From Sminthopsis crassicaudata (Eukaryota), in the NCBI RefSeq assembly GCF_048593235.1, contig NC_133619.1:589179963-589243962 (forward strand): a stretch of 64,000 nucleotides of DNA, written 5' to 3'. A model generated the notes under the pieces. The model worked only from the letters and a program-made list of their open reading frames with translations. It ran no database searches and was not told the DNA's origin. Made by a program: the position numbers and the translations under genes. Positions 5,325 to 64,000 of this stretch are shown here, piece by piece (position 1 is the stretch's first letter; every line of letters begins with the position of its first letter).

Positions 5325-7879
5325 CTACACGAAGCATATAAAAAAAAACAACACCAGTTTATGAGGCAAGGACATTTTTTTTAAATGAAGTTTTTAAGAT
5401 AGCAACTCTAGCTAATTAGCAGGATTGTATTTTTTAAAAAGTTAGCATTTCATGTCTGCCAAGAAAGCTTTGCTTGACTTTTGCATCTTTAAAGGGAAGA
5501 ACAAGCATAATTGACATCTCCTAGGCAGGGCCAGTGCCCACAGAGTATACAGCATTACAAGGTAGTAGCTGGGGAAAGGAGAAGAAAGGTCCAGCAGATT
5601 CAGCTCCCAGAAGATTCCCCTTGGAGGCTCTTTTTTAGTGTCATACAGGCATGCAACATTGAAAATAACTCTTTCTCCATTATGAAGACTATACCATAGA
5701 AGACAGGGGCAAAAAAATAAGACATAAAATAGTGTATATATTCTCCGTGCATTCTCATTTCTTCTACAATTAAGGTTTCCCTTCAGCTAGCTAGAACCTT
5801 TCAGGTTGGGCAATTTGCAAAGTAATAAAATAAGAAGGAAATATCTGTATTTACCAAATTTCCCATTTGCATAGTAAGATGAGTTGAGTAACAAATATAT
5901 TTCTGAATAGAATATTCCCAAGGACAACTGGTCAGACAGATACTCATAGGATCACTCACTCAAAAAAAGAGCCTATCAGGCAAAATTCACTGGATTTGAA
6001 AAGTCCTTGGAAATCCTACTTGTTTTACGTTTGAAGTACTTACAAAATTTCTTTATTCTTTTCTACTGAAGTCTAATGATATTAACCAAAATAGATAAGA
6101 AAATGTTTTTATTTTTAACCTAATTTCCTCAGAGATTTAAATAACTATAGGCAAACAAAATGCAACTATTAAGAAGTTAACAATTATCTTATTATAGACA
6201 GAATGAGTTTTTGATATTATAAAGGGGTATTTTAAACTTTTTGACATATCAATACAAGGAGCTAATTCTAGCCAACAGTGATGCAAGACAACAGTTCATA
6301 ATGACACTCTCCAGTATTATAGTTTATTTAGTAGCAAAGTAATGATATTTTAGAGAATCAACAACTGTAAAATTCACCCCTCTGAGTTATGGTATTCTTA
6401 AGGTGAAAAATTTATGAAGCAGCACCAGGACCCTGCCTTCTCTGAAGCTGAGAGTGATATCTTAGGCATTCTATCAAAGTTTCTTTTATGTTTGCTAAAG
6501 AGGCAGATTTGCATGGTAAGCTTCTGGGAACTCAGAAAATGCTTAAAAGCTGTGGAATTTCTACTCCGTCCATTACATTGCATGCTTGGGAATAAGGTGT
6601 TGCTGTAAAGAACTCATTGTGTCTGAAGGACATTCAGTCTATCTGTTGCTGAGATATCAATAAGTGAGTGAGTAGGGGATGAATGAATGAGTCCGGGACA
6701 ATAAAGCCCATGTTCAGCAGATATCTCTGTGTTGCTGTTTTTATGATCTGTAAACTTTAGAATGCTATTCTCCAGCTGACTTTTTTTTTTTTTTGTCTAG
6801 ATCATGGGATCACAGAATTAAAACTGGGAGGGACCATAAGGGTCGCCTAGTTGTCCCCTCATTTTACAGATGAGGATTCTGGGGCCCAGAGAGTAAAGTC
6901 TCACAGGTAGTGACTAAAACAAACTCCCCATTCTTTTCCCATTGCATTGCACTGTCCTAGGCTTCCCCACATTTTCCACAAGCTGGAATCCCCTAGTAGT
7001 ATTGAGATACCTTAGTGCACATGATAACTATAGAAGACACTCAATAAGTATTGGTTGATTAATTGATCTTAAGAAGACTTTCATTTCCTAGGAAAGAGGG
7101 AAGATATAACATATGACTTTCCTAGATTCTTTCTGGTTCTATTTCTGTGTGTTTGAACTTGAAGTTCTATTCTAAAGAGTACCTTTTAGACTAAGGAATC
7201 CAGAGATGGCCTGGAATCATAAATATAAAAACAGAACCTAACCTAGATAATGCCAACGAGGTGATCCAGTTCTCTGCTTTCTACATTCTTAAAGTCACAG
7301 TGAAGTCATTTAACCTCTCTACAAATGGGTCAGTTTTCCTATAAAATGAACACAAAAATGTGGTAGAAAGTTATTTTTATAAGTGTTTTTAAAGAGAAGA
7401 GAAAACAACATCCTACTCTTGCTTTAAATATTTCACAACATTCAGTGAGCAGCGTTCAAAGATTACTCCATTGAGGTTGAACTTGCTTTCTGTTGAATTC
7501 TGAAACAAAGACCAAACGGAGGAGGAAGCTTGCAGTATATTCTCTGATAATGCTAGACCCGGTCTGGCCTCCATGAAATACATCAAAACTGATAAAGAAA
7601 ATATTACAAGGCTTTTGGGAGGAAAAGTCCAAAATATAACTCCCCCATATGTGTCTGTGTGTATGTATAAAATTTTTGTTGGACACAATAAAAGGCCCCA
7701 TGAATGAAGGGTCTATTGAAAAAGGGTGACAAAAATGTTTTGGTTTTTTTTTTTGGGGGGGGTTGTGGGCAAGGGGAAGCAAGCAAAAAATCTGGGACTC
7801 TTGTAGGACCATAGGTCTAGAACAGACTTCAATGGGCCAACCCTTTTGTTTTATAGATGAAGAAAATGAAGCCTAAGAG

Positions 7880-8443
7880 TGTAAGGGCCCTTTAAATGGG
7901 CGGACACAGTGCATCGGGAGATTGAGGCCCAGAAGTATTAGGACTGCCCTTGGGCGGGATCCTGGCCATATTGAGATAGTTTCGTAATGGGTGACTCTCT
8001 CGCTGATTGGCTGTGTGTGTGACCTCACAGGCCCTATATAAGCCCACTGCAGGCAGCAACCGCCCTCTTTGACCTCCTGCTGTTCACCGTGGCTCACCAG
8101 CCTGGGTGGCCAAGCCAAGATGGGTAGCCGAAAGAGGTAAGGGTTTTGGTAGTGAACACATGGGTCTTCTGACCAGGTGTTCACTCGGGAACCAACAAGT
8201 CAGGGCATCAGTTAAGGCATTATGTGAGTAGGTATAATAAAGGCTTTTAAGATTACACGTGGTTGTTCTTGAGTGCGCTACCGGTTACTAAGCTATAGAT
8301 TCAAGAGATTGTGACCAGAGACCTTAGAAGGCCTCAGAGGAGGCGAGCCGGGTAGAGCTCACACTGCAAAGGACAGTGGTCAAAGGTGCTCTGGTGGGTC
8401 TAGGACAGACTAGTAATTGTAACTGCCAGGAGAGCACGTTACA
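7880..8443 (+). repeat. 5' LTR (564 bp)
   Basis: Starts TGTAAGG and ends GTTACA. GC boxes, inverted CCAAT (8006-8010), TATATAA (8035-8041) and AATAAA (8236-8241). Confidence 0.96.
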
Positions 8444-8445
8444 AA

Positions 8446-8463
8446 TGGCGCCCAACGTGGTGG
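8446..8463 (+). promoter_or_regulatory. Primer binding site, tRNA-Lys(1,2) type
   Basis: TGGCGCCCAACGTGG matches the first 15 of 18 nt of the canonical TGGCGCCCAACGTGGGGC and lies 2 nt after the 5' LTR. Confidence 0.9.
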
Positions 8464-8566
8464 ACGCATCAGAAATTATCAGGTTTTGAAAATATTTAAT
8501 ATTCAGAATTAAGATTCTGAAAGATCCGGTAGAAACGCCACTTAAGAGGGAAGACAGAGAAGCAAT

Positions 8567-9580
8567 ATGGACCCAGGTAAATCTGGGATCAGACTCAAGG
8601 ACACAGCTGAACATAATGCTTATTATATAAAGAGGTTAAAGAGCCAGATGGAAGATCTTTTAACAAAGATCACCACTGAAGAACAGCAGGAAGCTTGTAA
8701 TCAAGCTCCACAAAGGCTATCCCCACACCCAGTAAATAGAGCTAGGAGAGGGAGCAACCTAGAGCTAATGCGATTGTATGACAGTAGAGAGTATAAAATG
8801 CCACAGCAAGAGTTGCTGGAATTGCAGGTTAAACTACAGATGGAGATAGAGAAAGAAGAAAAAGCTAGGTTACTACAGATAGAACAGGAAGAGTTCAAAC
8901 CAGTGGCTGAAACTAAGGAAGGAAATAAACGAATCACATGGACTAAAGTTGTAGAAATTCTTCTTAGCATTTTGTTGGTTTACCTCCTGCATTGTTGTTT
9001 TAAGGAATTTATCCATTACTCTTCCATTGAGAAGAAGTTTAGTTCTTTTTATGTGCAAAGCTCAGGTTTGATTTGGAATCAGCCTTTGGGGGATTTTCCA
9101 ATTCTTCTTCCCTCTGCCTCACCTTCTTGGGCCAAGGGAGAAGGGGGAGGAGGAAAAGGAAGGGCGATAATACCATCAGCACTGCCCATTAATCCATTTA
9201 AAACTCCTGTGTCTTCATTTCAAAAGACAGGAGTAGGCTTTATGCCCCAAGGCAAAAAGGAATTGTGGGGTATTGAGTATAATCAGAAAAGTTTTAAAAA
9301 TACAGTTCAGTTAATTTCTAAGAAACCTTACAGGGACAAGACCTTGCAGTTAGAGAGAGTGGAGTTTTATCCTTGTAAAACTGCTAGGATCGTCTTTGGA
9401 GAGTTGGAACTCCTCTTTTCTTACCTCGTGGATTTTCCACTTCCACAGGTGAGCTTGATTTCCCAACCCCCTACGGGTACTTATAAAACAGTGTCTATGT
9501 CTAGAATGGGTTGGAAAATTGCTGTTTTAATCACTAGAATAAATAGACAGTGTGTGATCTTTGACCCAGGAGGAAAATAA
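8567..9580 (+). CDS. ERV-encoded orphan protein, 337 aa (coiled coil, single TM helix, possible dUTPase-like C-terminal domain)
   Basis: Uninterrupted ATG-started ORF about 100 nt after the PBS, at the gag position. E/Q/K/L-rich heptads at about aa 20-45 and 80-110; hydrophobic VVEILLSILLVYLLHCCF at aa 128-145. No MHR, zinc knuckle, protease or RT motifs seen. Confidence 0.6.
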   Translation: MDPGKSGIRLKDTAEHNAYYIKRLKSQMEDLLTKITTEEQQEACNQAPQRLSPHPVNRARRGSNLELMRLYDSREYKMPQQELLELQVKLQMEIEKEEKARLLQIEQEEFKPVAETKEGNKRITWTKVVEILLSILLVYLLHCCFKEFIHYSSIEKKFSSFYVQSSGLIWNQPLGDFPILLPSASPSWAKGEGGGGKGRAIIPSALPINPFKTPVSSFQKTGVGFMPQGKKELWGIEYNQKSFKNTVQLISKKPYRDKTLQLERVEFYPCKTARIVFGELELLFSYLVDFPLPQVSLISQPPTGTYKTVSMSRMGWKIAVLITRINRQCVIFDPGGK

Positions 9581-9929
9581 TCAGATTTATTGATTCACAC
9601 TCCTGGAGTACAATTCGGTATCAGAAACTCAAACTTTGATTTTTAGGCAAAAGAATTCAGGGATATAGCCGAGTGTTCTAGTAAAGTCATTACTGCCCAG
9701 ACTATCCCCAAGATCTTCTCTTCTAAACAAGAGAAAGGAATTTTGGGATATGTGATTGCTTACAATTTTTAAATTTTGATTTTACATTTTTAAACATTTT
9801 TGATTTTACATCTTCAAAGTATCTTGATTTTACATTTTAAAGTTATTTTGGTCTTACATTTTTAATCTATTTTGGTTTTACATTTTTAAATTCTTTGCCT
9901 TTTACCTTAGCAATGCACTTCGGGCATAC

Positions 9930-10130
9930 ACAGAAAGTGCAGCTAAGTGACAGACTGACTAACTTTTGTCTGACTTTTGTTAATCTTTTTGACAACAACT
10001 TTGTTTCCACTGTGACGTGGAAAGGCCTGGATGGCATTTGGAAAAGCCCAAGTTGGGCCCTGGGGACATTCTTTACTAGGTGCAGATCCAGCAGCAGAGT
10101 TCATCCCCACCAGAGACATTTGTAACCTGG
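9930..10130 (+). pseudogene. Integrase C-terminal remnant (frameshifted)
   Basis: Frames read VTWKGLDGIWK and WGHSLLGADPAAEFIPTRDI, resembling the betaretroviral IN C-terminal pattern VWWKD...W...WGRG...WIPTRH. Confidence 0.55.
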
Positions 10131-10400
10131 GGATCCAAGAGAAGGACCAGACAACAGTCCAGAGAGACCAGCCAGATGTCCGCAGCCCTTCAGACGCTGA
10201 TGGCAGCGATGCCCCTCCTGACCGTGACACCAGAGACAGCAGACACAGTTCCAGTGTTGCAGCTGAAATGGACTGTTTTGGGTGATACGCAATATAAAGA
10301 CTGTAAATGGACAATGGGCCTGCTTGCTTCTCCCGTGGCCACTTGCCATATGGTGGCCTGGGAAGAGGCTTTGCCCTATGCTTTCTATTGAAGGACTATG
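10100..10400 (+). pseudogene. env leader/signal-peptide remnant
   Basis: FVTWGSKRRTRQQSRETSQMSAALQTLMAAMPLLTV resembles the betaretroviral Env leader (PTWG.LKKL....MLLAAL) and overlaps the IN end as expected. Confidence 0.45.
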
Positions 10401-10496
10401 CTTTTAAATTAGTGGGTGAAAAACCAACACACCCACCTGCCATTGTTATTGAGACAATGTTACTGGACATGACTTTGCTTATGTGCACCTGTGAAT

Positions 10497-10780
10497 CTAG
10501 AATTGTTCTAGAATTGTGAAAAGTGCGATAGAGAATTGTGATAAACTAGAATTGTTCTAGGATTGTGAAAAGTGCAATTGAGAATTGTGATAAACTAGAA
10601 TTGTTCTAGGATTGTGACAAGTGCAATAGAGAATTGTGATAAGCTAGAATTGTTCTAGAATTGTGAAAAGTGCAATTGAGAATTGTGATAAGCTAGAATT
10701 GTTCTAGGAGTGTGAAAAGTGCAACAGAAAATTGTAAGAAACTAGAATTGGTCTAGAACTGTGATAAATGTAACTAGAAT
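10497..10780 (+). repeat. 49-bp tandem repeat (about 5.5 copies) inside the ERV
   Basis: Unit CTAGAATTGTTCTAGAATTGTGAAAAGTGCAATAGAGAATTGTGATAAA with minor variants. Confidence 0.92.
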
Positions 10781-10899
10781 TGTGACAACCTACCTCACTG
10801 ATATTTGTTAACTAGAATTGTGATGTTTTACCTTGTTGACTTCCCACCTCAGTGTTGACATCCTACCTCATTGGCATCCAACCTCTTTGGCTTATTATC

Positions 10900-11104
10900 T
10901 CGAGTATGACTTTGATGAATGGGTTGAACACTTGGGCCACTGTTGAGCCTGGTTCTCATTGTCATACTTCTGTTTACTGATTTGCTGCTTTGTACCTCCT
11001 TGGGCATAACACTCTGTCATCTCATGGATCAAGTGAACTGTAGCTGGTGCTAAAAGTTTAGCTTGATGAGATGTGCGGTTCCCGCAAAACAAGAGAAAGG
11101 GAAT
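10900..11104 (+). pseudogene. env TM membrane-spanning and cytoplasmic-tail remnant
   Basis: Hydrophobic LLSLVLIVILLF and FCLLICCFV segments in shifted frames, ending QNKRKG over the PPT like the betaretroviral ...NKKGG.V terminus. Confidence 0.5.
11086..11103 (+). promoter_or_regulatory. 3' polypurine tract
   Basis: AAAACAAGAGAAAGGGAA immediately before the 3' LTR. Confidence 0.88.
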
Positions 11105-11668
11105 TGTAAGGGCCCTTTAAATGGGCGGACACAGTGCATCGGGAGATTGAGGCCCAGAAGTATTAGGACTGCCCTTGGGCGGGATCCTGGCCATATTGAG
11201 ATAGTTTCGTAATGGGTGACTCTCTCGCTGATTGGCTGTGTGTGTGACCTCACAGGCCCTATATAAGCCCACTGCAGGCAGCAACCGCCCTCTTTGACCT
11301 CCTGCTGTTCACCGTGGCTCACCAGCCTGGGTGGCCAAGCCAAGATGGGTAGCCGAAAGAGGTAAGGGTTTTGGTAGTGAACACATGGGTCTTCTGACCA
11401 GGTGTTCACTCGGGAACCAACAAGTCAGGGCATCAGTTAAGGCATTATGTGAGTAGGTATAATAAAGGCTTTTAAGATTACACGTGGTTGTTCTTGAGTG
11501 CGCTACCGGTTACTAAGCTATAGATTCAAGAGATTGTGACCAGAGACCTTAGAAGGCCTCAGAGGAGGCGAGCCGGGTAGAGCTCACACTGCAAAGGACA
11601 GTGGTCAAAGGTGCTCTGGTGGGTCTAGGACAGACTAGTAATTGTAACTGCCAGGAGAGCACGTTACA
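11105..11668 (+). repeat. 3' LTR (564 bp)
   Basis: No difference from the 5' LTR found by manual comparison. Confidence 0.96.
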
Positions 11669-13260
11669 TAAGAGGTTAAATAGCTTGCCTTAGATCACAC
11701 AAGTAGTAAGCTAAAGGCAGGATTTGAACCCATATATGACTCGTGAGTTATTATGCCTTCCACTGTGCCATGCTGCTCTTTAGTATCATTGTTTTGGGGA
11801 TCAGATATGGTGTCTTGGAACTGGATCATTATCTTTCTAGTCTTAGGAATCCATGTCCTGAATCAGCACAGTTCCCCCACTTTCCAGTAAAGCTAAGGAA
11901 TTCCCTAGTATGATCCAAGATTTCCTTACGTTGTCTTGTTTGACCATAGGATGCTGCACAGCATTTCCACTTCCACAATAATTTATGATTAAAGGTAACT
12001 TGTGGGACCAGTCCCAACTCTTGTGGGAAGGAAGCATCTCAACATGGAGACACAAGACTTTTTAGCTGAAAGGAGTGGGTGTGTGGGGAGGAACATAGGC
12101 TGCAAAAAAGCTCTGTTGTGGGAGTACAGGGAAGTCTTAGAGAATAAGAGCCATTTAAGGAAAAAAGAGGGCTGTGGGCAAAGAAAAGGGAATACATTGG
12201 AGTCTTGATTAGGCAAAAACAGGTAACTATGGGCCTTAATTAAGGATAGGAATTGTTAGAAGAGGATGTTAAAATAGCAAACAAAAGTCCTTTGCACAAC
12301 AATTAATTAAATAATTTCCATTGTTTTTGTTAGTATTGTTATAATAATTATTATTATAAGACATAATATACTTATATAATAATATACTTTTATTGTTAGC
12401 AAGCTCTTCTAGTTTGGAGAAAGAGAATCAAGACAGACCAAGGATTCTCAGACATCAGAGGGACCATTTGTATTAGATCAGAAATCCTGAGAGAACAGAC
12501 TTTCAGTTTTAAAGGGTTGGTGATCAAGGAGTGACATCAGAATTTTGAGAGGAGAGTGGTAAGGGTGTCAGTAGAACAGTGTTTTAGGTTTGGTGGGAAG
12601 GTTCCCCCCCACTTCTAAGGGTAAGATGATGGCTAGAACAGAATTTGAAGGGAGGCAATGGATGGTGTGGGGCAGGGTCCTCCACTTCTGAGTGGTGGTA
12701 CCTAAGGATCAGAATTTGAATGGAAGGTCTGAGGTGATGGGGAAAAGTGTCTTCAGAAGGTATTGGAGAGTCAAGTCCCCCAGTTCTGGGGGATGAGATC
12801 AGGGCAACAGAGAGTGAGGAAAGGAAATTGAAGGTTGCTATGGAAAGCAACTAAGAAAGGGGTCCAAGGACAGCCTCTTTCACTTTTAAGAATGTTCGGG
12901 GGTCTCGGACCTTCAGGAGGCTTTGGAGAGAAGGCAGAGGATGGTTAGAGGGAGTAGCTTTCCTGTTTGGGGGAAGAAGGCCAGAAGAGGAGCATCCACT
13001 AATTTTGAGGGTCTTGGGGACCAGACTGTCTGCTTTTGAGAAATTATTAAGAAGCAACAGCTGAGGATGGTCCATGCAGAAGGGTCTTCCACTTTTGTGG
13101 CATCTCAGGCAGAGAAGCCCCTGGTTTGGGTGAGAGGTAGAGAGAGCATCGTCTGAAAAGATTCCCTGATTTGGAGAAAGGTCTGGAGAGACGGGCCCCC
13201 TGCTTGGGAGGAGGATATCACAAGTAACTGACTGAGAATCTGGGGAATAAGTTCCATGTT

Positions 13261-13440
13261 TTGGAGGCCCTGGGGCTAGTCTCTTGTTTTGGGGGGCCCT
13301 GGTTTCCGTTTCCTGTTTCGGGGGCCCTGGGACCGTCCCGTTCTGGGGAGCCCTGGGACCGTCCCCTGTTTCGGGGGCCCTGGGGACCGTCCCTGTTTCG
13401 GGGGCCCTGGGACCGTCCCCTGTTTCGGGGGGCCCTGGGT
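13261..13440. repeat. GC-rich minisatellite of about 27 bp (about 5-6 copies) at the start of OSCP1 intron 1
   Basis: Unit approximately GGGGCCCTGGGACCGTCCCCTGTTTCG. Confidence 0.85.
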
Positions 13441-13450
13441 AGCCTCTCAC

Positions 13451-13562
13451 CTTTACGGGCCTTGTCTGTCGGGACGTTCTGCGCCCGCAAGCGCTGGTCC
13501 AGGATGTAGAGCATCTCCCCGCCCAGGTTCAGGAAGAGCAGAGGTAGCGTCCGCACCGACAT
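13451..13562 (-). CDS. OSCP1: OSCP1 coding exon 1 (organic solute carrier partner 1); gene continues off the left end of the window
   Basis: Translates MSVRTLPLLFLNLGGEMLYILDQRLRAQNVPTDKARK, matching the recalled OSCP1 N-terminus. It ends at a phase-1 donor G|GTGAGA, lies in a CpG island and has the expected synteny with MRPS15 and CSF3R. Confidence 0.96.
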
Positions 13563-23000: not shown

Positions 23001-26000
23001 AACACCCTTCATGTTCTCAAACTTCTCAGGATACTGCTATTCTGAGTTGTCTCGGAAAAGCTCACAACATTGTTTCCCAGGCATTAAAGAGGATCAATTC
23101 CAGAGTACAGAGGAAGGAGACTGGGGGCTTCTGAAGGGACTTTCTCTAAAACTCAGGATCTTAGGAGTTACTGAGGGCAGTGGTGTCAAACTCAAATAGA
23201 AATGGAAGTCACTAAATGTACATAAAGATCCTTGTAGGATGAGTCATGTTTTAAAATGGAATGCATTGTTTTATTGTATTTATTTTGTTAAATATTTCAA
23301 AGTTACATTTTGACCTAATTCTTGCTGCAATCAGGATTGTTGTGGGCTGCCAGTTTGATACTTATAACCTAGGGCATTGAGTGGTTAACAATGTGACATG
23401 TTGAGGATTACACAGCCAATGGTTGCCAGAGGCAGCAGGATGGAGTGGGTAAATTAGCCCGCCTTGGAACCAAGCACTGGGTTTGAGGTTGACCTTAATA
23501 AATAAATGTGTTGGAGGACAGAGGACATGAGCCTGATATCCCACTGGGGACAGAAAGCAAAGCGAGATGAATGCCACCTCCCTCATCAGAAGCAAGGCCT
23601 TGTGCTTTCCATTCCATTATTTATAATTATACATCAGCTGATATTTTATATAGAGCTTTGCAGTATAGGAAGTACTTTATAACTATGGTCTCATTTATTT
23701 CTCACAGTCCTATGACAGAAGAGATAAAGATAGTGATTGGGGAGTTAGTGTGAAAGTACCCAAGAGACTGATTATGCAGTTAGAGAACTTGGTCTGAACT
23801 CAGACTCTGTCACTTAGTATGTGACTATAAACAAATCATTGTACTTCCAGATTTTCATCTCCTTTGTATGGGGGCCGAGCTAGCTCATCTCTGAAAGTCC
23901 TTTCAGCTCTATATCTCTGACTCACCAGTTGAATTTCCTTGATTTATAGATCAGGGAACTGAAGCCCAATAATTGTGACTTGTCCAAGGTAACAAAGTTA
24001 AGTGGAAGGATCAGGATTGGAACTGAGGCTTCCTGAGGCCAAAGTGATCCTCTAGCCACTTCCTCTTATAAGACAAATCAACTTAGAGAATTCATTAAAT
24101 GATTCTGCTCAGTGATATCAATATTACATTGGTAAAGTATATTTGATGCGCAGCATATCTATGTCTGTTTTTAGAACTAATGGAAATAAATGCCAGAGAG
24201 AAAACAAAAGCAGATCCCACAGTTCACCCTGTTCTGACAATGCACCATAGATGGGTATTGATAAAGAATATGGCTAAGGAAAAAAAAGTACCCTCGGAAG
24301 GAGAGAAGACACTCACCTGGTCGGCCATTTCCAGAGACAAAAGCCTTTTTACAACATCATCGACCCTGTAGGGAGATCGAAATGGTGAAGAATCTCAGAG
24401 CAGATGTGGTGGTTGGTGGTGGTGGGAGTCCGGAAAATCATAGTAACCTAGAACTTCTTTCTCAAACAGATCATAAACTTCTCTAGAGAAGAGAGGTCTT
24501 CTCCCCCAAAATTAGAATAAAAGATTATGATTTTTTTTTGGGGGGGGAGGGACCATGTAGAATGATCTTCATAGCGTGACAGAAAGAAACTTAATCTGTC
24601 CTGCCACATAGGAGGCTGGCAATCAATATTAACCAGAATATGGGCAAAATCATCCAAACACATATCAAGCCTCAAATCACTTATTTTTCTATGTGTCACA
24701 ATGATAAGCAAGTGACCGAAGGGAATGGCTAATGCCTCCATCTCTCCAGATCACTTTTCTTGCTCTCTGGTTTCCTTGCGCTGTCACCAATTTGTCCCAA
24801 TCAATCACTTCCCCAAAATAGGGCCAGCCGCTTATGCTTGAATAGAAATAATGGAAAATGATCAGTTTGTGATAATGGTGATCTGTTTCTTTAAAACTGG
24901 CTTTTTCTATCTCTCTTCTCCCACATTTTGCCTCCAGACCATGACACATACGTACTTGTCAATTCCTGGGACATTTTGGTAATCTTTCATTAGTATGGAG
25001 GAAGGCAGGTCATCCATCTGGCTGCTCTGGGTGGCTAAAGCAGGCACAAAAGGAAACCATGGAAGATCAGCTCTCACCCTTGCCCATTGCCCACTGAGCC
25101 CTAAGACTGGGATATTTGGGAGCCAAGAAGATCAATGGATCTGAAAAGACTGAACAAATCTTTGAGACTCTGGGAGTTTCAGCCTATTCATGTGCAAAAC
25201 TAGAAGGTGGCAAAGGCTGCGACAGGCCTCCATGATGTTAGGGAGCAACTTATGTACATCATTTAAATCAGTCATTCATTAGTTATTCTATACTGAATGG
25301 GTGCCAGACCCTGTGCTAAATGTTGGGAATACAAAGGCAAAAGACTGCCTCTGTCTTCAGGGGTTTCCCCCTCTAAAGGGGAAGAGAACAGAGCAATAAC
25401 CATAAGCAGGAAGGTCTCAGAGGGAAGGTCCCAGATGAATGAAGAGGAAACAAAACTTTTGGGGAGACAACACAGTTCTTTCTGAATAGGGTTTTTTTTT
25501 TTTTTTTTTTTTTTTTTTTGTTGTTGTTTTTTTACCAAGGGCAGGAGGAGCAATTCTTTTTTTTAGCATGATTCACACAAGAGGCTTGGCGCGCTAGGGG
25601 GAGACCCAGTCCCCTCCTGATCCCAGCTCGTCCCCCTCCCCCCCATTCCCTTAAAGCCTGGTGGTGTTTACTGTTCACTTCAAACAACTCCATCCCTGGA
25701 GCCACGCCAGGGGTCACCTACCAGGTGTCTTGTCCGCTGCATAGGCTCGGGCTGCCCGCAGGAGGAGGCCATTTCCTAGAAAGTGAAGGGGAGATTGGAA
25801 GTGGCCCCCTTCCTCCCTCCCCCTCTTCCTTTAGCTTCAGTTCTTTCCTCCTCAGAATTCAAGGTTACTTCGTGTTTTCTTCCCGGATTTCCAGCCTCTT
25901 ACTCGTTCTCTCAAACCTCTCCGCCCGCTTTCTTTCCCGGTTCTGTCCCGTGTCCCTGCAGACTCTCCGCCCGCTTTCTTTCCCGGTTCTGTCCCGTGTC

Positions 26001-26952
26001 CCCGCAGACTCTCCGCCCGCTTTCTTTCCCGGTTCTGTCCCGTGTCCCCGCAGACTCTCCGCCCGCTTTCTTTCCCGGTTCTGTCCCGTGTCCCCGCACA
26101 CTCTCTGCCCGCTTTCTTTCCTGGTTCTGTCCCGTGTCCCCGCAGACTCTCCGCCCGCTTTCTTTCCCGGTTCTGTCTCCGCCCGCTTTCTTTCCTGGTT
26201 CTGTCCCGTGTCCCCGCACACTCTCCGCCCGCTTTCTTTCCCGGTTCTGTCTCCGCCAGCTTTCTTTCCTGGTTCTGTCCCGTGTCCCCGCAGACTCTCC
26301 GCCCGCTTTCTTTCCCGGTTCTGTCCCGTGTCCCCGCAGACTCTCCGCCCGCTTTCTTTCCCGGTTCTGTCCCGTGTCCCCGCACACTCTCCGCCCGCTT
26401 TCTTTCCTGGTTCTGTCTCCGCCCGCTTTCTTTCCTGGTTCTGTCCGTGTCCCCGCACACTCTCCGCCCGCTTTCTTTCCCGGTTCTGTCCCGTGTCCCC
26501 GCACACTCTCCGCCCGCTTTCTTTCCCGGTTCTGTCCCGTGTCCCCGCACACTCTCCGCCCGCTTTCTTTCCCGGTTCCGTCCCGTGTCCCCGCAGACTC
26601 TCCGCCCGCTTTCTTTGTCCCCGCAGACTCTCCGCCCGCTTTCTTTCCCGGTTCTGTCCCGTGTCCCCGCACACTCTCCGCCCGCTCCTCTCCTCTCCGC
26701 TGTTCCACTTCGCCGTTTTCTCTCGGCCCCGCCGCCTGGTTCCTTTCCCGGCTCTCGTTCACGGTCCTGCCTGCCGCTCCACTTCTCCCGCCCTCACCCC
26801 TCCATTTCCCAGCCCTTCTCCCCTCCCTTCCCCTCACCTGAGGGTAGCAGGGCGCGCGGAGGTCCTACGGCCACTCTGGCCGCCGGCCCTCTTGCCAGAG
26901 CCGGGACCTGAGCTTGCCCCCACAGAAGCGCCCTTCGAGCCGCCCTCAGCAT
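17021..26952 (-). CDS. MRPS15: Mitochondrial ribosomal protein S15 (uS15m), 8 coding exons, 241 aa
   Basis: Exons 26838-26952, 25722-25775, 24956-25034, 24317-24365, 22866-22950, 19124-19182, 17769-17960 and 17021-17113. All introns are GT-AG and phase-compatible; total 726 nt. Peptides include [36 protein letters not shown] and [15 protein letters not shown]...[12 protein letters not shown]. Confidence 0.96.
17475..17660. mobile_element. Old DNA-transposon MITE relic (related copies at about 21225-21570 and inverted at about 58290-58490)
   Basis: Shared motifs gttgtgaccccatatg...actgaatgtgg and ggttgtgtaaaaatttct...aaaag in three places. Confidence 0.45.
25917..26686. repeat. CpG-rich minisatellite in MRPS15 intron 1 (46-bp unit interspersed with 28-bp deletion variants, roughly 18-20 units)
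   Basis: Unit CTCTCCGCCCGCTTTCTTTCCCGGTTCTGTCCCGTGTCCCCGCAGA; the short unit lacks the 3' part. Confidence 0.95.
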
Positions 26953-38758: not shown

Positions 38759-41700
38759 CTAAATGCCACTCAGTTCTTCAGCTCCTTCAATTTTCAGACC
38801 TTGCAGAAGGGGAAAATCGAGGAGTGGTCCTTGTGGGCAGTGAGAAAGGAAGGCAGAATCATCACTGTCTTCTTCTGGGAAGCCATGAGAGCTGGGAACC
38901 CTAGATCCAGGGGGACTTCTCTGGAACCACATGTTCTCATAGAGTTTGGGACTTGGGGTGAGGTCAGCCAGAAGGGGCTGTGTGGAATCCGAGCGCAGGT
39001 AGAGCCCAGCAGGTGATCTGTGCTGATGCTGGTACCCTTGGTTTCCCATCACCTTCCCATACTGGATGGGGTCATTGGAGCTGAGATGGGGCTCTGGCAG
39101 GAAGGGATCCCCTTGGAGAATGTAAGCCTGGACCAGCTGGGGGAGATTCTTGACTTCTTCATCTGTCCCCATTGTTTGTGCTGGCAACTTCTTCTCCTCC
39201 TCCTTCAGGACTATGATCTTGGAGACAGGGGACATGGCAGGGTCCCTCAGGCTTGACAGATGAATTGTCTCCTGGGAAGGATGGGAGTATTAAAGTGATT
39301 GGAGGGGGATATCCAGAACATTTCTTCTCTTGGGGGCCAAATGTGGGTTTTGGTTGCCCAGTGTTAGGAGTTGGGAAGGGACTACTTACCTTACGAGAGG
39401 AAAAGGTATATAGGGAGGCGAGGGAGATGTAGTTGGATCATGGGAATCATGTGTCCATCTCTCCCCCGGTCTGTTTTCCCTCAGGCTCCTCGTGCCTTTG
39501 TCCCAATCTAAGCCCTCCCTCCAGCCTATATCTTACCCCATGAAGGATTGTGGGGATCCACTGGCCCAAACTGCTGTGGGCTGGGTCTGGGATATTTGGC
39601 CAGAATTGATTCTTCATCCTGGAAAAGTTGAAGTGAGCACAGGCATTGTGGATCCCTGCTTCAGTGTCAAGCTTTCCCATCTCCTAATTTATCCTGTGTT
39701 CCTGTGATTTCTTTTTGGTAAGGCCATCTTGGCCTCTGAAAGCCTAAGCTTTATTTCAAGGTCTAGGGAAGGGAGAATCCTTCATTCTCTTGTAAGGAAG
39801 AAAGAAGATTGAGAACAACTGAATCTTGTTTACTAAGACCCTGAAGTCCCATTATAGACTCTGTAGGCTGTCTCTCCTTACTTCAATATACTGGAGAAAA
39901 GCCTTCAATCTGAAGCCAGGGAGAATCTCAATTCTAAAATGAGGATTCCAAAGTCTCTTCTCTAAGGTACATATTTCCTGGATCCCATGATTTTATTTTA
40001 GGGGAGGCAATAGGCTTAGAAGGAATTCAAGTTAGATGTGAGAAAGAATTGTCCAGTTGGAGGACAATGGATGGAAGGAAGGAAACAAGGGTTATGATGA
40101 CAGATGCCGAGGCTGCTGAGTTACATCTTGAGCCATTGAGCTGTGTCCTCCCCTCTCAGCATCCCTTCTCCATCCCTATCCCACCAGCCCCAGGTTCTCA
40201 ACTCACTTGTGGTTCTTATGGAGGCAGACAAGTGTAATAATAACACAGAACACCAACACAGAGAAGCCACTCAGGATCAAGAACACATTGATATCTTTCT
40301 CCTCTGTGGGGAAGGGTTAATTAACACCAAAGAAGAAAAGATTAGATCCCTGAGCACAGAAACATTTCTAAATCCCCAAATATGGTACCGTGACTTTCCC
40401 TCTTGGACTAGGTCTTCCTGGAGGTAGGGCCATATTTCCCTTTTTCAGACCGGAATTTCTCTTAGGATAAGATGTATCTTTCCTCTGGATATGTCTTTAG
40501 GACAGGAATTTGGTCCTGCTAGGACATATGAGTCTATGGCATTGGAATGTGAACTCCTTGCATATAGGGATCACCTCTTTCTTTGTGACTTGTATTCTCT
40601 GCATCTTACACCATGCTTGGGCCACAGTAGGCACTTGACTTATGGATGTCAGCTGGTTGGCTCTGGCCACCCCCATGGAGAGTGTCTTTACCAAGGGCTA
40701 TGGTCACCACTGTGAGGTCTGTGCTGTTAATGCCTCCGACTCGGTTAGAAGCCATGAGATGGACATGGTACATGGTGCTGGGTTCTAGGCCACGGAGGAT
40801 GCATCTTCGAGAAGAACCATTTAAGTTGACAGCTATAAAATGGTAGTGAAGACAAATGAGAAAGACAGAGTGCCTGGATTAGTACCCTGGGGGCTCTGGT
40901 TTCTCCACATGTGGCTTTTGACCTCTAGGACTCTGGTCCCTGACCCTGGAATCTGAGAAAACATATTTTCTGAGTGGGTGGGTAGGGGGTCAGGGAATAG
41001 TACTTAAAGAATCCTGGTTCTGGACATTGATCCAGAAGTGGTTGAGAAGGACATGTGTGGTCTGTATGGGAGACCCCTGGAAGGAGATAGCCTGAGAATA
41101 TCAGGTATGTATCCTGGGATCCTTGAGTTAGAGGAGAACAGGCAAAATCCCTTGATTTGGGAATAGTTCAAAGGATAGTGTATTAGGTGTGGGAGATCTG
41201 GAGTGTGTGATGGGGATGTCAGGGATCTCTCTAAAAGAATACTGAGCATATGTTCCTTGGGTCTTACATGACTTGGGGGTAGGGATCAGAGAGGGGCAGG
41301 GGCAGCACTCACAGAATCCCTTATCCTGAATATTGGTCCAGAAGACAGTGTATTGGGTGATGGGGCTTTTCCCCAGCTCTGGGGTCCCAGGCTCCCATTC
41401 CAGTTCTGCCCAGGTCCTTCCAATATGCTTCAGCTTTAGCTTTGGAGCATGGAATAGAGCTGTGGAATGAGAAGGAGGATTCTATGGAGGCTGAATGGAT
41501 TTTGATCACCTCCTCACCAGAAAGGTCTAGCTCCTGGGATAGGGTTGGGGGAAAGATGGAGAAGGGAGCTCAATGCCTGTTCCCAGGCCCTGGCAGCTGG
41601 TTGTCACACATATGTGTTAGAAGTAGGGCGCAGATTCAGACAGAGGGAGAATCCCTGAGGCCATTGTGACCTTGTCTCTGAGTACTGCTGTCTTTTGCTC

Positions 41701-44700
41701 CAGCTTTCTTTCTATATCCTTCAGTTCCCTCCATTCCCCCTTCCACAGGGGGATGACACAAGGAAATGCCAAGGGGAGAGAAGGGAAACTTATTTTAGGG
41801 CTAAGGGCCTTGGCTACCTACATAATTTCTCTGCTGGACTTTTACAAGCCTAATGCCTGAAATCAAAGCAGGGGGATTGCCTAATTGGGCACTCACACTA
41901 GTGTTCTCTGCACTAATGGGTAGGGCTGGAATAGAACAAATGTGTCCAGAGCATGAGGAAGCGGGGTGGGATAAGAGTTTGGGAATGAGAGAAAGTTGTT
42001 GGCAAACCCTTTTCTCGGGAGTAGGCATAGATGTGCTGGGGACGCCCTCTGGTGCCATCGTATAGGGGGGACACAATGATCTTGTACAGCTGAAAAGGCA
42101 TGATGTTCTCTGCAAAGAAAGAGCAGTGAGGGCTAAGTCTTGAAAGGGGAAGGGGCTACCCACTGTATTTTCTCTCTGCAATCACTGACACCAGCTAAGG
42201 GAGAAGTACACAAATGATGGTAGGGACTGTTGGAATACAGCTAAAGTAGGAGGGCTGAGGAAGCATATCAGGAAGAACTTTCTATCTCTGAATGTGGGGA
42301 ATGGAAGAACAACAGGTAATCTGAGAAAACCTAGAAATTCTTATTCCCCATAGGAAAAGAACAGACACCACAACAATAACTAACATTTATATAGTGTTTT
42401 AAGGATTGCAAAGTTCTTTACAAAAATTATTTTATGCTCCTGACAACCCTGAGAGGCAGGTGGCGTTATTGTGCTCATTTTACAGGTGGGGAAACTGAGG
42501 TTGAGAGCAATTGAGTGGCTTGTCCAGGGTTGCACAACTACTAAGTGTCAGGGGCTTTCTTATTCAAAGTCTATCATGAAGAACCCCCCTCCCCCCCATA
42601 TAGGTTGGGACAAGAGCTGCTTTGCCTTGAAGCAGGAGAATGGATGGGATAATGAAGTGGAAGGACCACATATGTATATTTTAAGGGATCTATCATCAGT
42701 AAAAAGAACCCCAGTTCCCTGCTAGGCTCTGAGCCCTCACCATCCAGCAGGGTCCCAGTGCTGCTCCCATTGGACTCGATCTTCCAGTAGCCGTTACAGT
42801 CATCCTCTTGGTGAACTGGGGCCAGGCACCATTCTATCACATAGGCCCTGGGGAGAGGCTGGCCTGGAGGGTGATCCCATCCTACCCAGAGGCTGTGAGC
42901 ATCTGGGGCAGAAGTGTGGATGCTGGACAGAGAGGTACCTATAGATGTGGATATGGTAAGGAATCTACTTTGTGGAGAGGAAAGAATCCTGGCTCTGGAC
43001 AGTGGTCCAGAACTGGTTGAGAAGGACATGTGTGGTCTATATGGGAGATCCCTGGAAGGAGACAGCCTGAGAATACCAGGTATGTGTCCTGGGGCACATC
43101 CCACTCCACCTATCCTTCCCATCCCCACTTCACTCTCAATGAACGCAATAACTAATGGTTGATCCCAGACCTTCAGCCTCAGATGGATTTGGCTTTAGCT
43201 AACCCCAGGCTCTATGAAGAGACTTATACATTCTCTTCATCTCCCTCCTTATCTCTGAAGACCTGGAGGGAGGTGGTGCTGTAAACACCAAATAGTGTGT
43301 CTGCTCTCTCAGGAGGAATCTTATCCTTACCTTGGGATTCCCAGAAAATGATGGTGGTAGGGGAAGATTCTCCAGCTATGTTATAGGCAGTGAGGGTGAC
43401 TTCTTTAGCCCACTCTGGCAACTGGAAGGCACAGCTGAACTCTGTGGTGTTGCAGAGGGGTTGGGACTCCCCATCTTCTCTTAGAGGACTTGGGAAGACC
43501 AGATAGCCTTGGATTCTGTTGTCATTTTCCTCTGTGAGCACTGGCTGCATAGACACACAAAAGGGTATGGTCTCTTCAAGGAATCCCTGCACTTGGAGTT
43601 AGGAGAGTTTTGGGTTTAAATTCTGCCTTAGAAGTTAGATTGTATTCTGGGCAAATTACCAAATTTTTCTGAGCCTCAGTTTTTCTTATTTGTAAAATGG
43701 GGATAATAATGCCAGTAAAAAAAAAATTCATAGCTATTGGGGGGCTCAGAAGAGAGCAGCATTTCAGAATTAGAATGTAACTTAGAGGCAACATAGAACA
43801 ACTTATATCTGACCAGAAATCTCCTCGACAACATAACAGACAAGTGTTCATTCATCTAGTTGTGGCTTAAGAACTTCCAAGAAAGGGGGCTCCACTATTT
43901 TCAGGCATCTAGGTGGTGCAGTGGATAGAGTCCTGAGCCTAAAATCAGGAAGACCAGAGTTCAAATCTAGCCTCAACTTTTAATAGCTATTTCTCTTAAC
44001 CTCTGCTTGCCTCCATTTCCATATCTGTAAAATGTAAAATGTATGTATCTACCAGTGTTGGAATCAAATGAGATAACAATTGTAAAAAGCATGGTACAGT
44101 GCTTGGCATTTAATAAGTGCTATATAAATACTAAGTATTATTATTATTATTGTTGTTATTATTATTCCTTAATTGGCCCATTCCACGTTATGTGCAGGAC
44201 ATTTTCCCCCAACATCAAACCTAAATTTGTTTCTTTGAACTTAGACCCAATGCTTTTGATTTTGTCTTCTGGGAAACTGTAACATCCTCTTCCACATGGA
44301 ATCCTTAAAATATTTGAAGATTGCTAGCATCCTTCCTAATTCTCCTCTTCTCCAAGATTGGTACTTCTAGTTGCTTCAACTGATTTTTATAGAGTATGAC
44401 AATGAGGCTATTCGTCCCCTTGGTAACCTTCTTCTGGACACACTGTTATTATTATTATTATTTTTTTCTGTTTTAAAAGAAGCTGCCCAGAAATGAACAG
44501 TTATCCAGATGTGGTCTGACCAGGGCAGAGTGCTATGGTACTATCACTTCTTAGCCTTAGACTGTATTCTTTTCATGCACTTAAACTTGAGTTTAGCTTT
44601 TTTTGGTTGCCACATTGCCCTCTTAACTTATCTTTTTTTGGACAAAACATTATCTGTTCATGTTCTTTTCATCTTGAACTTTTGAAGAGGAATTTTTGAA

Positions 44701-61566: not shown

Positions 61567-62732
61567 TTCTATTCTTTTTTAAAATTAATTTTATAATTAT
61601 AGCATTTTTTACAACATTATCCCTTGTACTCCCTTCTGTTCCGAATTTTCCTCTCCTTCCCTCCACCCCCTCCCTTAGATGGCAGGCATTCCCATACATA
61701 TTAAATATGTTATAGTATATCCTAGATACAATATATGTGTGCAGAACCAAAAAAATTTTTTTTTTTTTTTTTTTTGTTGTTGTTGTTGCAAAGGAAGAAT
61801 TGGATTTGGAAGGTAAAAATAACCTGGGGAGAAAAACAAAAAATGCAAGCAGTTTACACTCATTTCCCAGTGTTCCTTCTCTGGGTGTAGCTGATTCTGT
61901 CCATCATTAATCAATTGGAATTGGATTAGCTCTTCTCTGTGTTGAAGAAATCCACTTCCATCAGCATACATCCTCGTACAGTATCATTGTTGAAATGTAT
62001 AATGATCTTCTGGTTCTGCTCGTTTCACTCAGCATCAGTTGATGTAAGTCTCTCCAGGCCTCTCTGTATTTCTCCTGTTGGTCATTCCTTATAGAACAAT
62101 AATATTCCATAACATTCATATACCATAGTTTACCCAACCATTCTCCAATTGATGGACATCCATTCATCTTCCAGCTTCTAGCCACTATGAAAAGGGCTGC
62201 CACAAACATTTTGGCACATACAGGTCCCTTTCCCTTCTTTAGTAGTTCCTTGGGGTATAAGCCCAGTAGTAGTATGGCTGGGTCAAAGGGTATGCACATT
62301 TTGATAACTTTTTGGGCATAATTCCAGATTGCTCTCCAGAATGGTTGGATTCTTTCACAACTCCACCAACAATGCATCAGTGTCCCAGTTTTCCCACATC
62401 CCCTCCAACATTCATCGTTATTTTTTCCTGTCATCTTAGCCAATCTGACAGGTGTGTAGTGGTATCTCAGAGTTGTCTTAATTTGCATTTCTCTGATCAA
62501 TAGTGATTTGGAACACTGTTTTATATGAGTAGAAATAGTTTCAATTTCATTATCTGAAAATTGTCTGTTCATATCCTTTGACCACTTATGAATTGGAGAA
62601 TGGCTTGATTTCTTATAAATTAGGGTCAATTCTCTGTATATTTTGGAGATGAGGTCTTTATTAGAACCTTTAACTGTAAAAATGTTTTTCCAATTTGTTA
62701 CTTCCCTTCTAATCTTGTTTGCATTAGTTTTG
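61567..62732 (-). mobile_element. Young 5'-truncated L1 (ORF2 C-terminus plus 3' UTR)
   Basis: Open ORF2 C-terminus including CWRGCGKTGTLMHCWWSC, with a 14-bp TSD TAAACATGACTTTT at 61553-61566 and 62733-62746. Confidence 0.95.
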
Positions 62733-64000
62733 TAAACATGACTTTTATATGCATGGGTACTCACTTTATTTCTATGTGTTTGAATCAAACAATAGAAACA
62801 CAAATCAAACATAGAAAACACATGTTTCTGAAATAGATTTAGGCTATTATTATGGAAACATCCCTCTCTTTCCCAAATATATGATACATAGTTTAGATTT
62901 AAAGGAACACATCCTGCAAGGGAGCAATGGGAGATGACAAAATACATGAAAATGTGGGAGGGAGATAGAAAGGGGAGGGAAGTGGGAGAGTATGAAGCAT
63001 ATATAATATAAAACAAACAAACAATGGGCTTTGAGATTGAAGAACCTTGAGATGAAATCCTGTTTCTTATGACAAACTTTTTACATCCTGGCCCCAACCT
63101 ACCTTTCCAACATTATTATTATATGTTATTCTATTCTATTATACTATTATACATAATTCCCCTTCTCTATGGTCGAACATGCCTGCACCCTTGCTATTCT
63201 TCATATATGTTCTTCCATCTCCATCCTTTGTTTTGCCTGTCTTCATGCCTGGAATACACTCTTTCTCTTCAACTACTGCTTCTAAGAATACTTATCTTTC
63301 TTTGATACTTTGGTCAATCATTACCTTTTAAGTAAAGTCTCCTTTACCTCCTGAATTTACTTTGAATTTATTCTGTATACACTTAGCAAATTACATATCA
63401 TCTCCTCTTCTAGAGTATAAGTTCTTGGAGGGCAGAGAATGTTTCATTTTTGTCTTTGTATACCTGGTGGTAACATAATACCCAGCATGTAAATGAGGTG
63501 TTTAATAAATGCTTATTGATTGCTTGCTGCTATGCAATCACATGTAAATCACCTTTCTGAGCCTCAGTTTCTTAATCTGCCAAAGACTATTAATTTCAAA
63601 GGATTCTTCTGAGACTCTAAGGATATTAATGTATGTAAAGTGCTTTGTAAAACTTTAAAACCCAATATAAATGTCAGTTATTATGATGATGATGGATTTC
63701 TTTCTCTAGAGCCTTTAAAAGCAGGAAGAAATTTTCATCTGTCTGGAAAGTATTAAGAACTGACTGTCTTGCCCAAAAATAAGGTAATGAGAAAAAAATC
63801 TAACATTTCAAGGTTGCTTATAGCCAGCGGGCATCTTGAACTTGGTCTACTATCCAAATTTCCCTAGTGAGATTCTCAAGTGTTTTGGACTTCTCTTTTC
63901 ACCACTTCTCTCCCCCAACATTTTGCATGGACAAACAGCCACCAGTTATTTATCTGCACATGACTTTGTCATTTTTTCTTCATGGTTTAGTTCTAGTGTC

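Follow-up and report, generated by a model that had tools for sequence, protein, structure and literature searches.

The stretch of Sminthopsis crassicaudata DNA analysed here, 64,000 nucleotides long and referred to as the window, contains a copy of a young, non-autonomous endogenous retrovirus (ERV) family in whose open reading frame (ORF) stops and frameshifts are purged while the amino acids drift. As the best explanation, to which we would give about an even chance, translation of this ORF would be a requirement acting in cis in a parasite of an env-less ERV, possibly by way of tethering the RNA to a membrane. The LTR element in the window is complete (7880-11668) and has the following features:

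7874..7879, + strand: 5′ TSD, TAAGAG
7880..8443, + strand: 5′ LTR of 564 bp, TG...CA; read by eye within it, a TATA-like site at ~8036, a splice-donor-like site at ~8135 and AATAAA at ~8236
8446..8463, + strand: PBS of the tRNA-Lys(CUU) type, with a diverged 3′ end
8567..9580, + strand: ORF, 337 aa in the window copy and 337-360 aa in intact copies
8567..8932, + strand: charged helical region, aa 1-122 of the ORF, predicted coiled coil, no homolog found
8933..9013, + strand: single predicted transmembrane helix followed by Cys-Cys, aa 123-149 of the ORF
9113..9316, + strand: Pro/Gly-rich remnant of the Gag spacer between matrix and capsid (MEBrv3-like family), ORF aa ~183-250
9329..9646, + strand: pro remnant, from its degenerate, dUTPase-like part, ORF aa ~255-337 and bases past the stop of the window copy
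9650..10130, + strand: integrase remnants, deleted and out of frame, and a T-rich repeat; significant in longer or older copies only
10445..10773, + strand: 49-bp tandem repeat, copy number differing among elements
11085..11104, + strand: polypurine tract
11105..11668, + strand: 3′ LTR of 564 bp, identical to the 5′ LTR
11669..11674, + strand: 3′ TSD, TAAGAG

By structure (a TG...CA LTR pair, a 6-bp TSD, a tRNA-Lys PBS and a polypurine tract) as well as by homology (internal sequence related to beta-type gag, pro and pol), the element belongs to the class II, beta-like ERVs, and the preliminary description was right about the TSD, the 2.66-kb internal region separating the two LTRs and the uninterrupted ORF. 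The tRNA-Lys PBS it had named, at 8446, is backed by a family copy (L091) in which the primer tRNA itself was copied after the LTR, with the anticodon CUU (Rfam tRNA, E 4e-7). At L057, L082 and L091 (two of them recognised by eye), some 60-70 nt of primer tRNA-Lys(CUU) sequence follow the LTR in the genome, and L047, L082 and L116 contain a segment of the element LTR in inverted orientation. The ATG of the ORF, with A at -3 and G at +4, is placed 123 nt past the LTR, and comparison with the candidate helper discussed below bore out that this is the position where gag would start. Of the integrase and env remnants previously described around the ORF, those of integrase gave no significant match in the window copy and reached significance in longer and older family copies, while env was not detected in a comparison with the 3′ portions of 12 autonomous copies, of which several carry env-sized ORFs.

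The insertion is situated within an OSCP1 intron, antisense to the gene, and the first coding exon (window 13221-13556, minus strand) is ~1.8 kb away. The gene is recognised by a Pfam Oscp1 exon at ~13,450-13,515 on the minus strand, and its next exon is located 7.4 kb to the left of the window. The LTR has the splice-donor-like site at ~8135. Elsewhere in the window, a 46-bp tandem repeat within a GC-rich stretch (25872-26703, 15 overlapping units listed) gives spurious long ORFs on both strands, exons at 38759-43194 on the minus strand resemble a cytokine receptor, which gave no Pfam match and which we take to be CSF3R, and a 3′ fragment of L1 ORF2 was recognised by eye at 61961-63112 on the minus strand.

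In regard to abundance, for which a count of copies in the source genome had been proposed, exact 22-mers gave 838 matches for the ORF, 3,850 for the LTR and 315 for the LTR-PBS junction, and this excess of LTR matches indicates that most LTRs are solo. A direct TSD was present at 21 of 30 loci picked by LTR. Only 0-4 differing sites were found in 43 of 46 scored LTR pairs (none in 15), the remaining three being mis-parsed truncations that were set aside. The family is thus large and young and, with 15 of the 46 scored pairs identical, it was recently active and probably still is. Older subfamilies at 83-92% identity also exist, and all six full-length copies among them have a broken ORF. Head-to-tail tandem arrays with shared LTRs were observed at four places in the genome assembly (G000; C1 at 12.87 Mb and 75.48 Mb, C4 at 419.11 Mb and 258.96 Mb). 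The literature searched, including the available text of the paper on MEBrv3, an env-less dasyurid beta-ERV (Harding et al. 2024, PMC11334065), holds no description of this family, whose LTR may carry a Repbase or Dfam name.

The protein encoded by the ORF has one hydrophobic stretch at ~aa 123-149 (Kyte-Doolittle maximum 2.08), in agreement with the single helix previously described. As for the two coiled coils of that description, the AlphaFold model of the whole ORF (mean pLDDT 33) has low-confidence helices at aa 11-45 and 80-109, which a crude heptad count did not single out. Because the best Pfam match had E 0.068, no capsid, knuckle, protease or RT domain is recognised in the ORF, as already stated for CCHC knuckles, protease and RT, and the element as a whole does not have gag (capsid, knuckles), protease, RT and integrase intact as in an autonomous MEBrv3-like ERV. 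Searches of Pfam, PDB sequences, the ESM Atlas (with the whole ORF and with aa 1-180) and collections of 5.8 billion and 1.84 billion proteins returned the family's own RefSeq models only, all from Sminthopsis crassicaudata and, in the large protein searches, 96-97% identical. Eight RefSeq models (LOC141566280 and seven others), annotated as uncharacterized host genes, are copies of the element's ORF, and beyond the element's own models these searches found no homolog among host or viral proteins. The window copy of the ORF has no N-glycosylation sequon. Contigs of four runs span the element, although such contigs cannot show transcription.

As judged from the alignments, the ORF is chimeric, with a C-terminal half that is derived from Gag and Pro and ~175 N-terminal residues without a recognisable source. 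Residues ~255-337 align just before the protease in the pro frame of the helper (tblastn E 8e-10, 39% identity; z 22.7), and residues ~183-250 align to the helper Gag spacer (DNA z 11.5, protein z 4.8), hhalign and BLASTP comparisons of the latter segment with Gag not being significant. The ORF therefore holds an in-frame fusion of a Gag spacer to a pro remnant, of which the Gag part is the weaker. The helper region aligned to the ORF is degenerate and dUTPase-like, with a Pfam E of 0.08 that falls short of the cut-off, and the corresponding domain of the window ORF has no Pfam match. A joint profile gave two matches among 177,635 PDB sequences (E 0.63-0.67), the dUTP pyrophosphatase 1dut and a near-identical pol-polyprotein chain, and the helper region as a query gave nothing at E 0.01 among 95 candidates. 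The C-terminal domain, modelled by AlphaFold with a pLDDT of 32, would at best be a pseudo-dUTPase. On the other hand, aa 1-175, also when taken from older copies, had no significant match to the helper gag, other frames, leader or LTR on both strands. The term orphan thus suits aa 1-175, which match nothing searched, and not the C-terminal half; likewise, the earlier caveat that the protein could prove to be a diverged known Gag applies to the gag/pro-derived half and not to the N-terminal ~175 aa. The oldest family copies retain remnants of protease, RNase H and integrase from the helper lineage, while capsid and nucleocapsid are wholly lost from the element.

Selection was assessed on a young set of 76 copies, comprising the window copy and 75 junction-picked copies chosen by position and not by ORF. 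The ORF is at least 335 aa long in 68 of them and shorter in seven, with one copy lacking a length score, which is contrary to the earlier reservation that it might be disrupted in most copies. Variants common to at least two copies were regarded as inherited and were counted per codon, with expectations from the same mutation spectrum. Counted in this way, which takes no account of recombination or recurrent mutation, the 76 copies hold 76 nonsynonymous and 32 synonymous inherited variants and no stops, against 74, 27.5 and 6.4 expected; the deficit of stops is significant (P=0.001), while omega, at 0.88, is not. Inherited indels are in frame in five of five cases within codons 1-336 and in 5 of 27 cases outside (Fisher P=0.001). 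A second set of 40 loci picked by an ORF 22-mer comprised 26 intact, 8 broken and 6 partial copies, the last being dropped. In a set of 125 copies, omega was 0.82-0.91 and four shared stop alleles were found against 12.6 expected, three of the four being scattered over distant copies, whereas a stop at codon 244, present in four of the nine oldest copies, looks inherited. Between old and young subfamilies omega was 1.02, shared indels were again in frame in five of five cases, and the reading frame is also retained between subfamilies 10-16% apart.

In contrast to the frame, the amino acid sequence shows little sign of constraint. Overall tests gave P values of 0.05-0.18, and omega was 0.94 for aa 121-150, so that no constraint on the helix is measurable; where the helix core has inherited changes, one hydrophobic residue replaces another, and the helix is hydrophobic in old and young copies alike, within chance expectation. 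Nucleotide diversity of the ORF (0.027) is not lower than that of non-coding parts (0.015-0.025). A 4-nt deletion at codon ~337, common to 37 of the 76 copies, removes the residues in which the dUTPase-like alignment ends; the tail of the ORF is dispensable, and the Gag/Pro-derived tail is predicted to be largely filler. The absence of stops and the restriction of indels to in-frame changes, combined with dN/dS of ~0.8-1.0, indicate that the frame is selected more than the protein sequence. A dN/dS near 1, which had been named beforehand as a sign against a functional gene, was thus indeed obtained (0.82-1.02), yet together with strong selection against stops and frameshifts.

These patterns could in principle arise without any selection if the family were too young for an ancestral open frame to decay, and the LTR pairs do imply only ~1.2 post-insertion changes per ORF, omega is near 1 and the old copies are all broken. 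However, the copies lie ~20 sites off a column yardstick, mostly by inherited changes, and the tree has many internal branches, which means that many lineages were filtered; with 0 inherited stops against 6.4, inherited indels in frame only and a frame retained across the subfamilies, such an explanation is very improbable and largely refuted. In a simulation, 28 of the 76 copies were expected to be stop-free and 74 were observed, a comparison that treats the copies as independent and is descriptive only.

The proposal that the element carries its own accessory or captured gene did not withstand the analysis, since dN/dS is near 1 and half of the ORF is diverged gag/pro, which argues against a conserved gene of this kind. 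A fast-evolving accessory membrane protein acting in trans under mixed selection, be it in immune evasion, as a restriction-factor decoy or as a particle modifier, nevertheless has the strong Kozak context, the long frame and the membrane helix with adjacent cysteines in its favour, along with an omega above 1 for aa 121-180 among the young copies (16 N, 3 S; not significant) and the modelling of eight such proteins in RefSeq. We hold it to be unlikely: a product acting in trans would shelter broken copies, yet no such copies have spread among the young ones, half of the copies lack the residues at which the dUTPase-like match ends, and the protein searches gave no homolog beyond a single species name. 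MMTV sag and JSRV orf-x are betaretroviral accessory genes, and glyco-Gag puts a membrane helix before the MLV Gag sequence. The ORF resembles all three in that a retroviral genome encodes an additional or membrane-anchored product, and differs from them in having no sequence match, in replacing gag, in lacking an N-glycosylation sequon in the window copy and in showing little amino-acid constraint.

Related to the question of how the element moves, autonomous relatives were found by a Pfam RT-thumb search, which returned many long pol frames, and 12 loci were compared. Two related env-less beta-like families, with pol frames of 907 and 895 aa, have gag, pro and pol domains by Pfam. The helper is ~7.1 kb long, with gag-pro-pol, near-identical LTRs and no env-sized ORF, and its Gag begins with Met-Gly. 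We infer that it is MEBrv3-like, a label that comes from size, gene content and the absence of env in the published description, and not from sequence. Of 90 loci chosen through the LTR-PBS junction, 15 are without the ORF region, and in four of these (L073, L078, L110 and L113) the LTR and PBS of the element are joined to an LTR or pol of the 907 family inside one 6-bp TSD. A comparable hybrid at L120 lacks a matching TSD, L097 and L103 are hybrids of greater age that involve the 907 and 895 families, and further element-helper junctions were seen among older copies. The env-bearing 887 family, whose PBS is of the same type, contributed to none of the hybrids at the 90 loci. Such hybrids are expected when both RNAs are co-packaged, so that, by retroviral template switching, they would point to a shared particle. 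With its own enzymes absent and hybrids contained within one TSD, the element probably depends on a partner, and the autonomous env-less, MEBrv3-like family is likely to be its helper. The number of internal copies of the element, 838, exceeds the 322 junctions of one main helper subfamily. The initial characterisation as a young, helper-dependent, beta-like marsupial family, absent from the searches made and with the ORF intact in most copies, is accordingly upheld.

Several further observations concern these loci. At L073, L078, L110 and L113, the LTR-PBS of the element is fused head-to-head to an inverted helper LTR via the self-complementary start of both PBSs. The dUTPase-like domain of the env-less families (pro frame of L137, L138 and L143-L146) is somewhat constrained (dN 0.12, dS 0.34 between the 907 and 895 families). 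In the 895 family (L137, L144, L145), gag and pro form a single 795-codon frame with no frameshift between them, and the env-bearing L136 and L147 likewise have very long first frames.

In regard to the mechanism, an internally deleted beta-type element would rely for packaging and copying on an env-less autonomous family resident in the same genome, and its ORF would be translated from the very RNA due to be copied, whereby the open frame would be kept in the copies that spread. Selection would have to act in cis: if the protein worked in trans, hundreds of intact sister copies would supply it and so protect the broken ones. The nascent N-terminal coiled-coil/membrane segment is the predicted working part of the ORF; it would tether the translating RNA to the membrane where the helper Gag assembles and thus raise the chance of the element RNA being packaged. 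Co-translational targeting of a retrotransposon RNA to the ER has been described for Ty1 (PMC3945221, as far as the available text goes). The shared codon-244 stop, the uniformly broken old copies and a helper Gag that still begins with Met-Gly count against this reading. More tentatively, the parasite may have evolved a new membrane-anchored domain (aa 1-175, arisen de novo or acquired from a source not yet sampled), which drags its RNA to the assembly site of the helper.

Since neither the helix nor the ORF overall shows measurable constraint, translation as such could also matter rather than protein chemistry. The peptide would then be irrelevant, and a long open frame would spare the unspliced RNA from NMD or clear it for packaging, an explanation that we find possible but still doubtful. 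It agrees with omega of ~0.8-1.0 in all ORF regions and between subfamilies, with ORF diversity not under that of non-coding parts, with the tolerance of late stops and with the precedent of RSV, in which a premature stop in gag lowers packaging through NMD according to the available text of PMC5035971. On the other hand, ~1.9 kb already follows the stop in intact copies, and more in older ones, and the hydrophobic character of the helix persists in copies of all ages, though within chance. With an omega of 0.94 for the helix, the data do not separate tethering from a shielding of the RNA from decay by translation alone.

Non-autonomous LTR elements of other mammals offer several parallels. 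In the mouse, ETn and VL30 are largely non-coding, unlike the element studied here, whose membrane-helix ORF is actively kept open, and MaLR belong to class III and not to class II. All three are, like our element, moved by an autonomous partner, in the case of VL30 via co-packaging (PMC6466679, available text). The closer parallel in organization is IAP 1-delta-1 of the mouse, which likewise arose by deletion from an env-less class II ERV, is non-autonomous and has one in-frame fusion ORF. According to PMC6466679 and PMC7411935, this gag-pol fusion aids its own retrotransposition in cis, Gag and Pol are needed in trans from full-length IAP, and the subtype has been very successful. However, IAP 1-delta-1 differs from IAP by a simple deletion of 1.9 kb, whereas our element has an LTR of its own that is not detectably similar to that of the helper, is ~40% identical to the helper where alignable, and has lost the capsid and carries an unassigned 175-aa N-terminus. 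By its sequence, it is best described as a 1-delta-1-like parasite that has diverged far more from its helper than the IAP precedent. The C-terminal half of its ORF and its pol remnants come from the MEBrv3-like lineage; the helper LTRs (~304 and 375-407 bp) differ from the 469-bp LTR of the MEBrv3 quoll representative (PMC11334065); the available main text of that paper makes no mention of a dUTPase or dUTPase-like domain, nor of the terms non-autonomous, transmembrane and accessory.

Hundreds of dated copies of a non-autonomous LTR element competing for helper particles constitute a natural experiment, and the family separates selection for an open frame from selection for a protein sequence. 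Such a family would tend to be missed by screens based on similarity to gag, pol and env, here in a marsupial lineage already noted for its ERV load, and a set of uncharacterized RefSeq genes is explained as retroelement ORFs. The N-terminal part of the ORF may represent a new membrane domain that originated within an ERV and, if true, the tethering of the RNA would be the LTR-element counterpart of Alu taking the L1 machinery.
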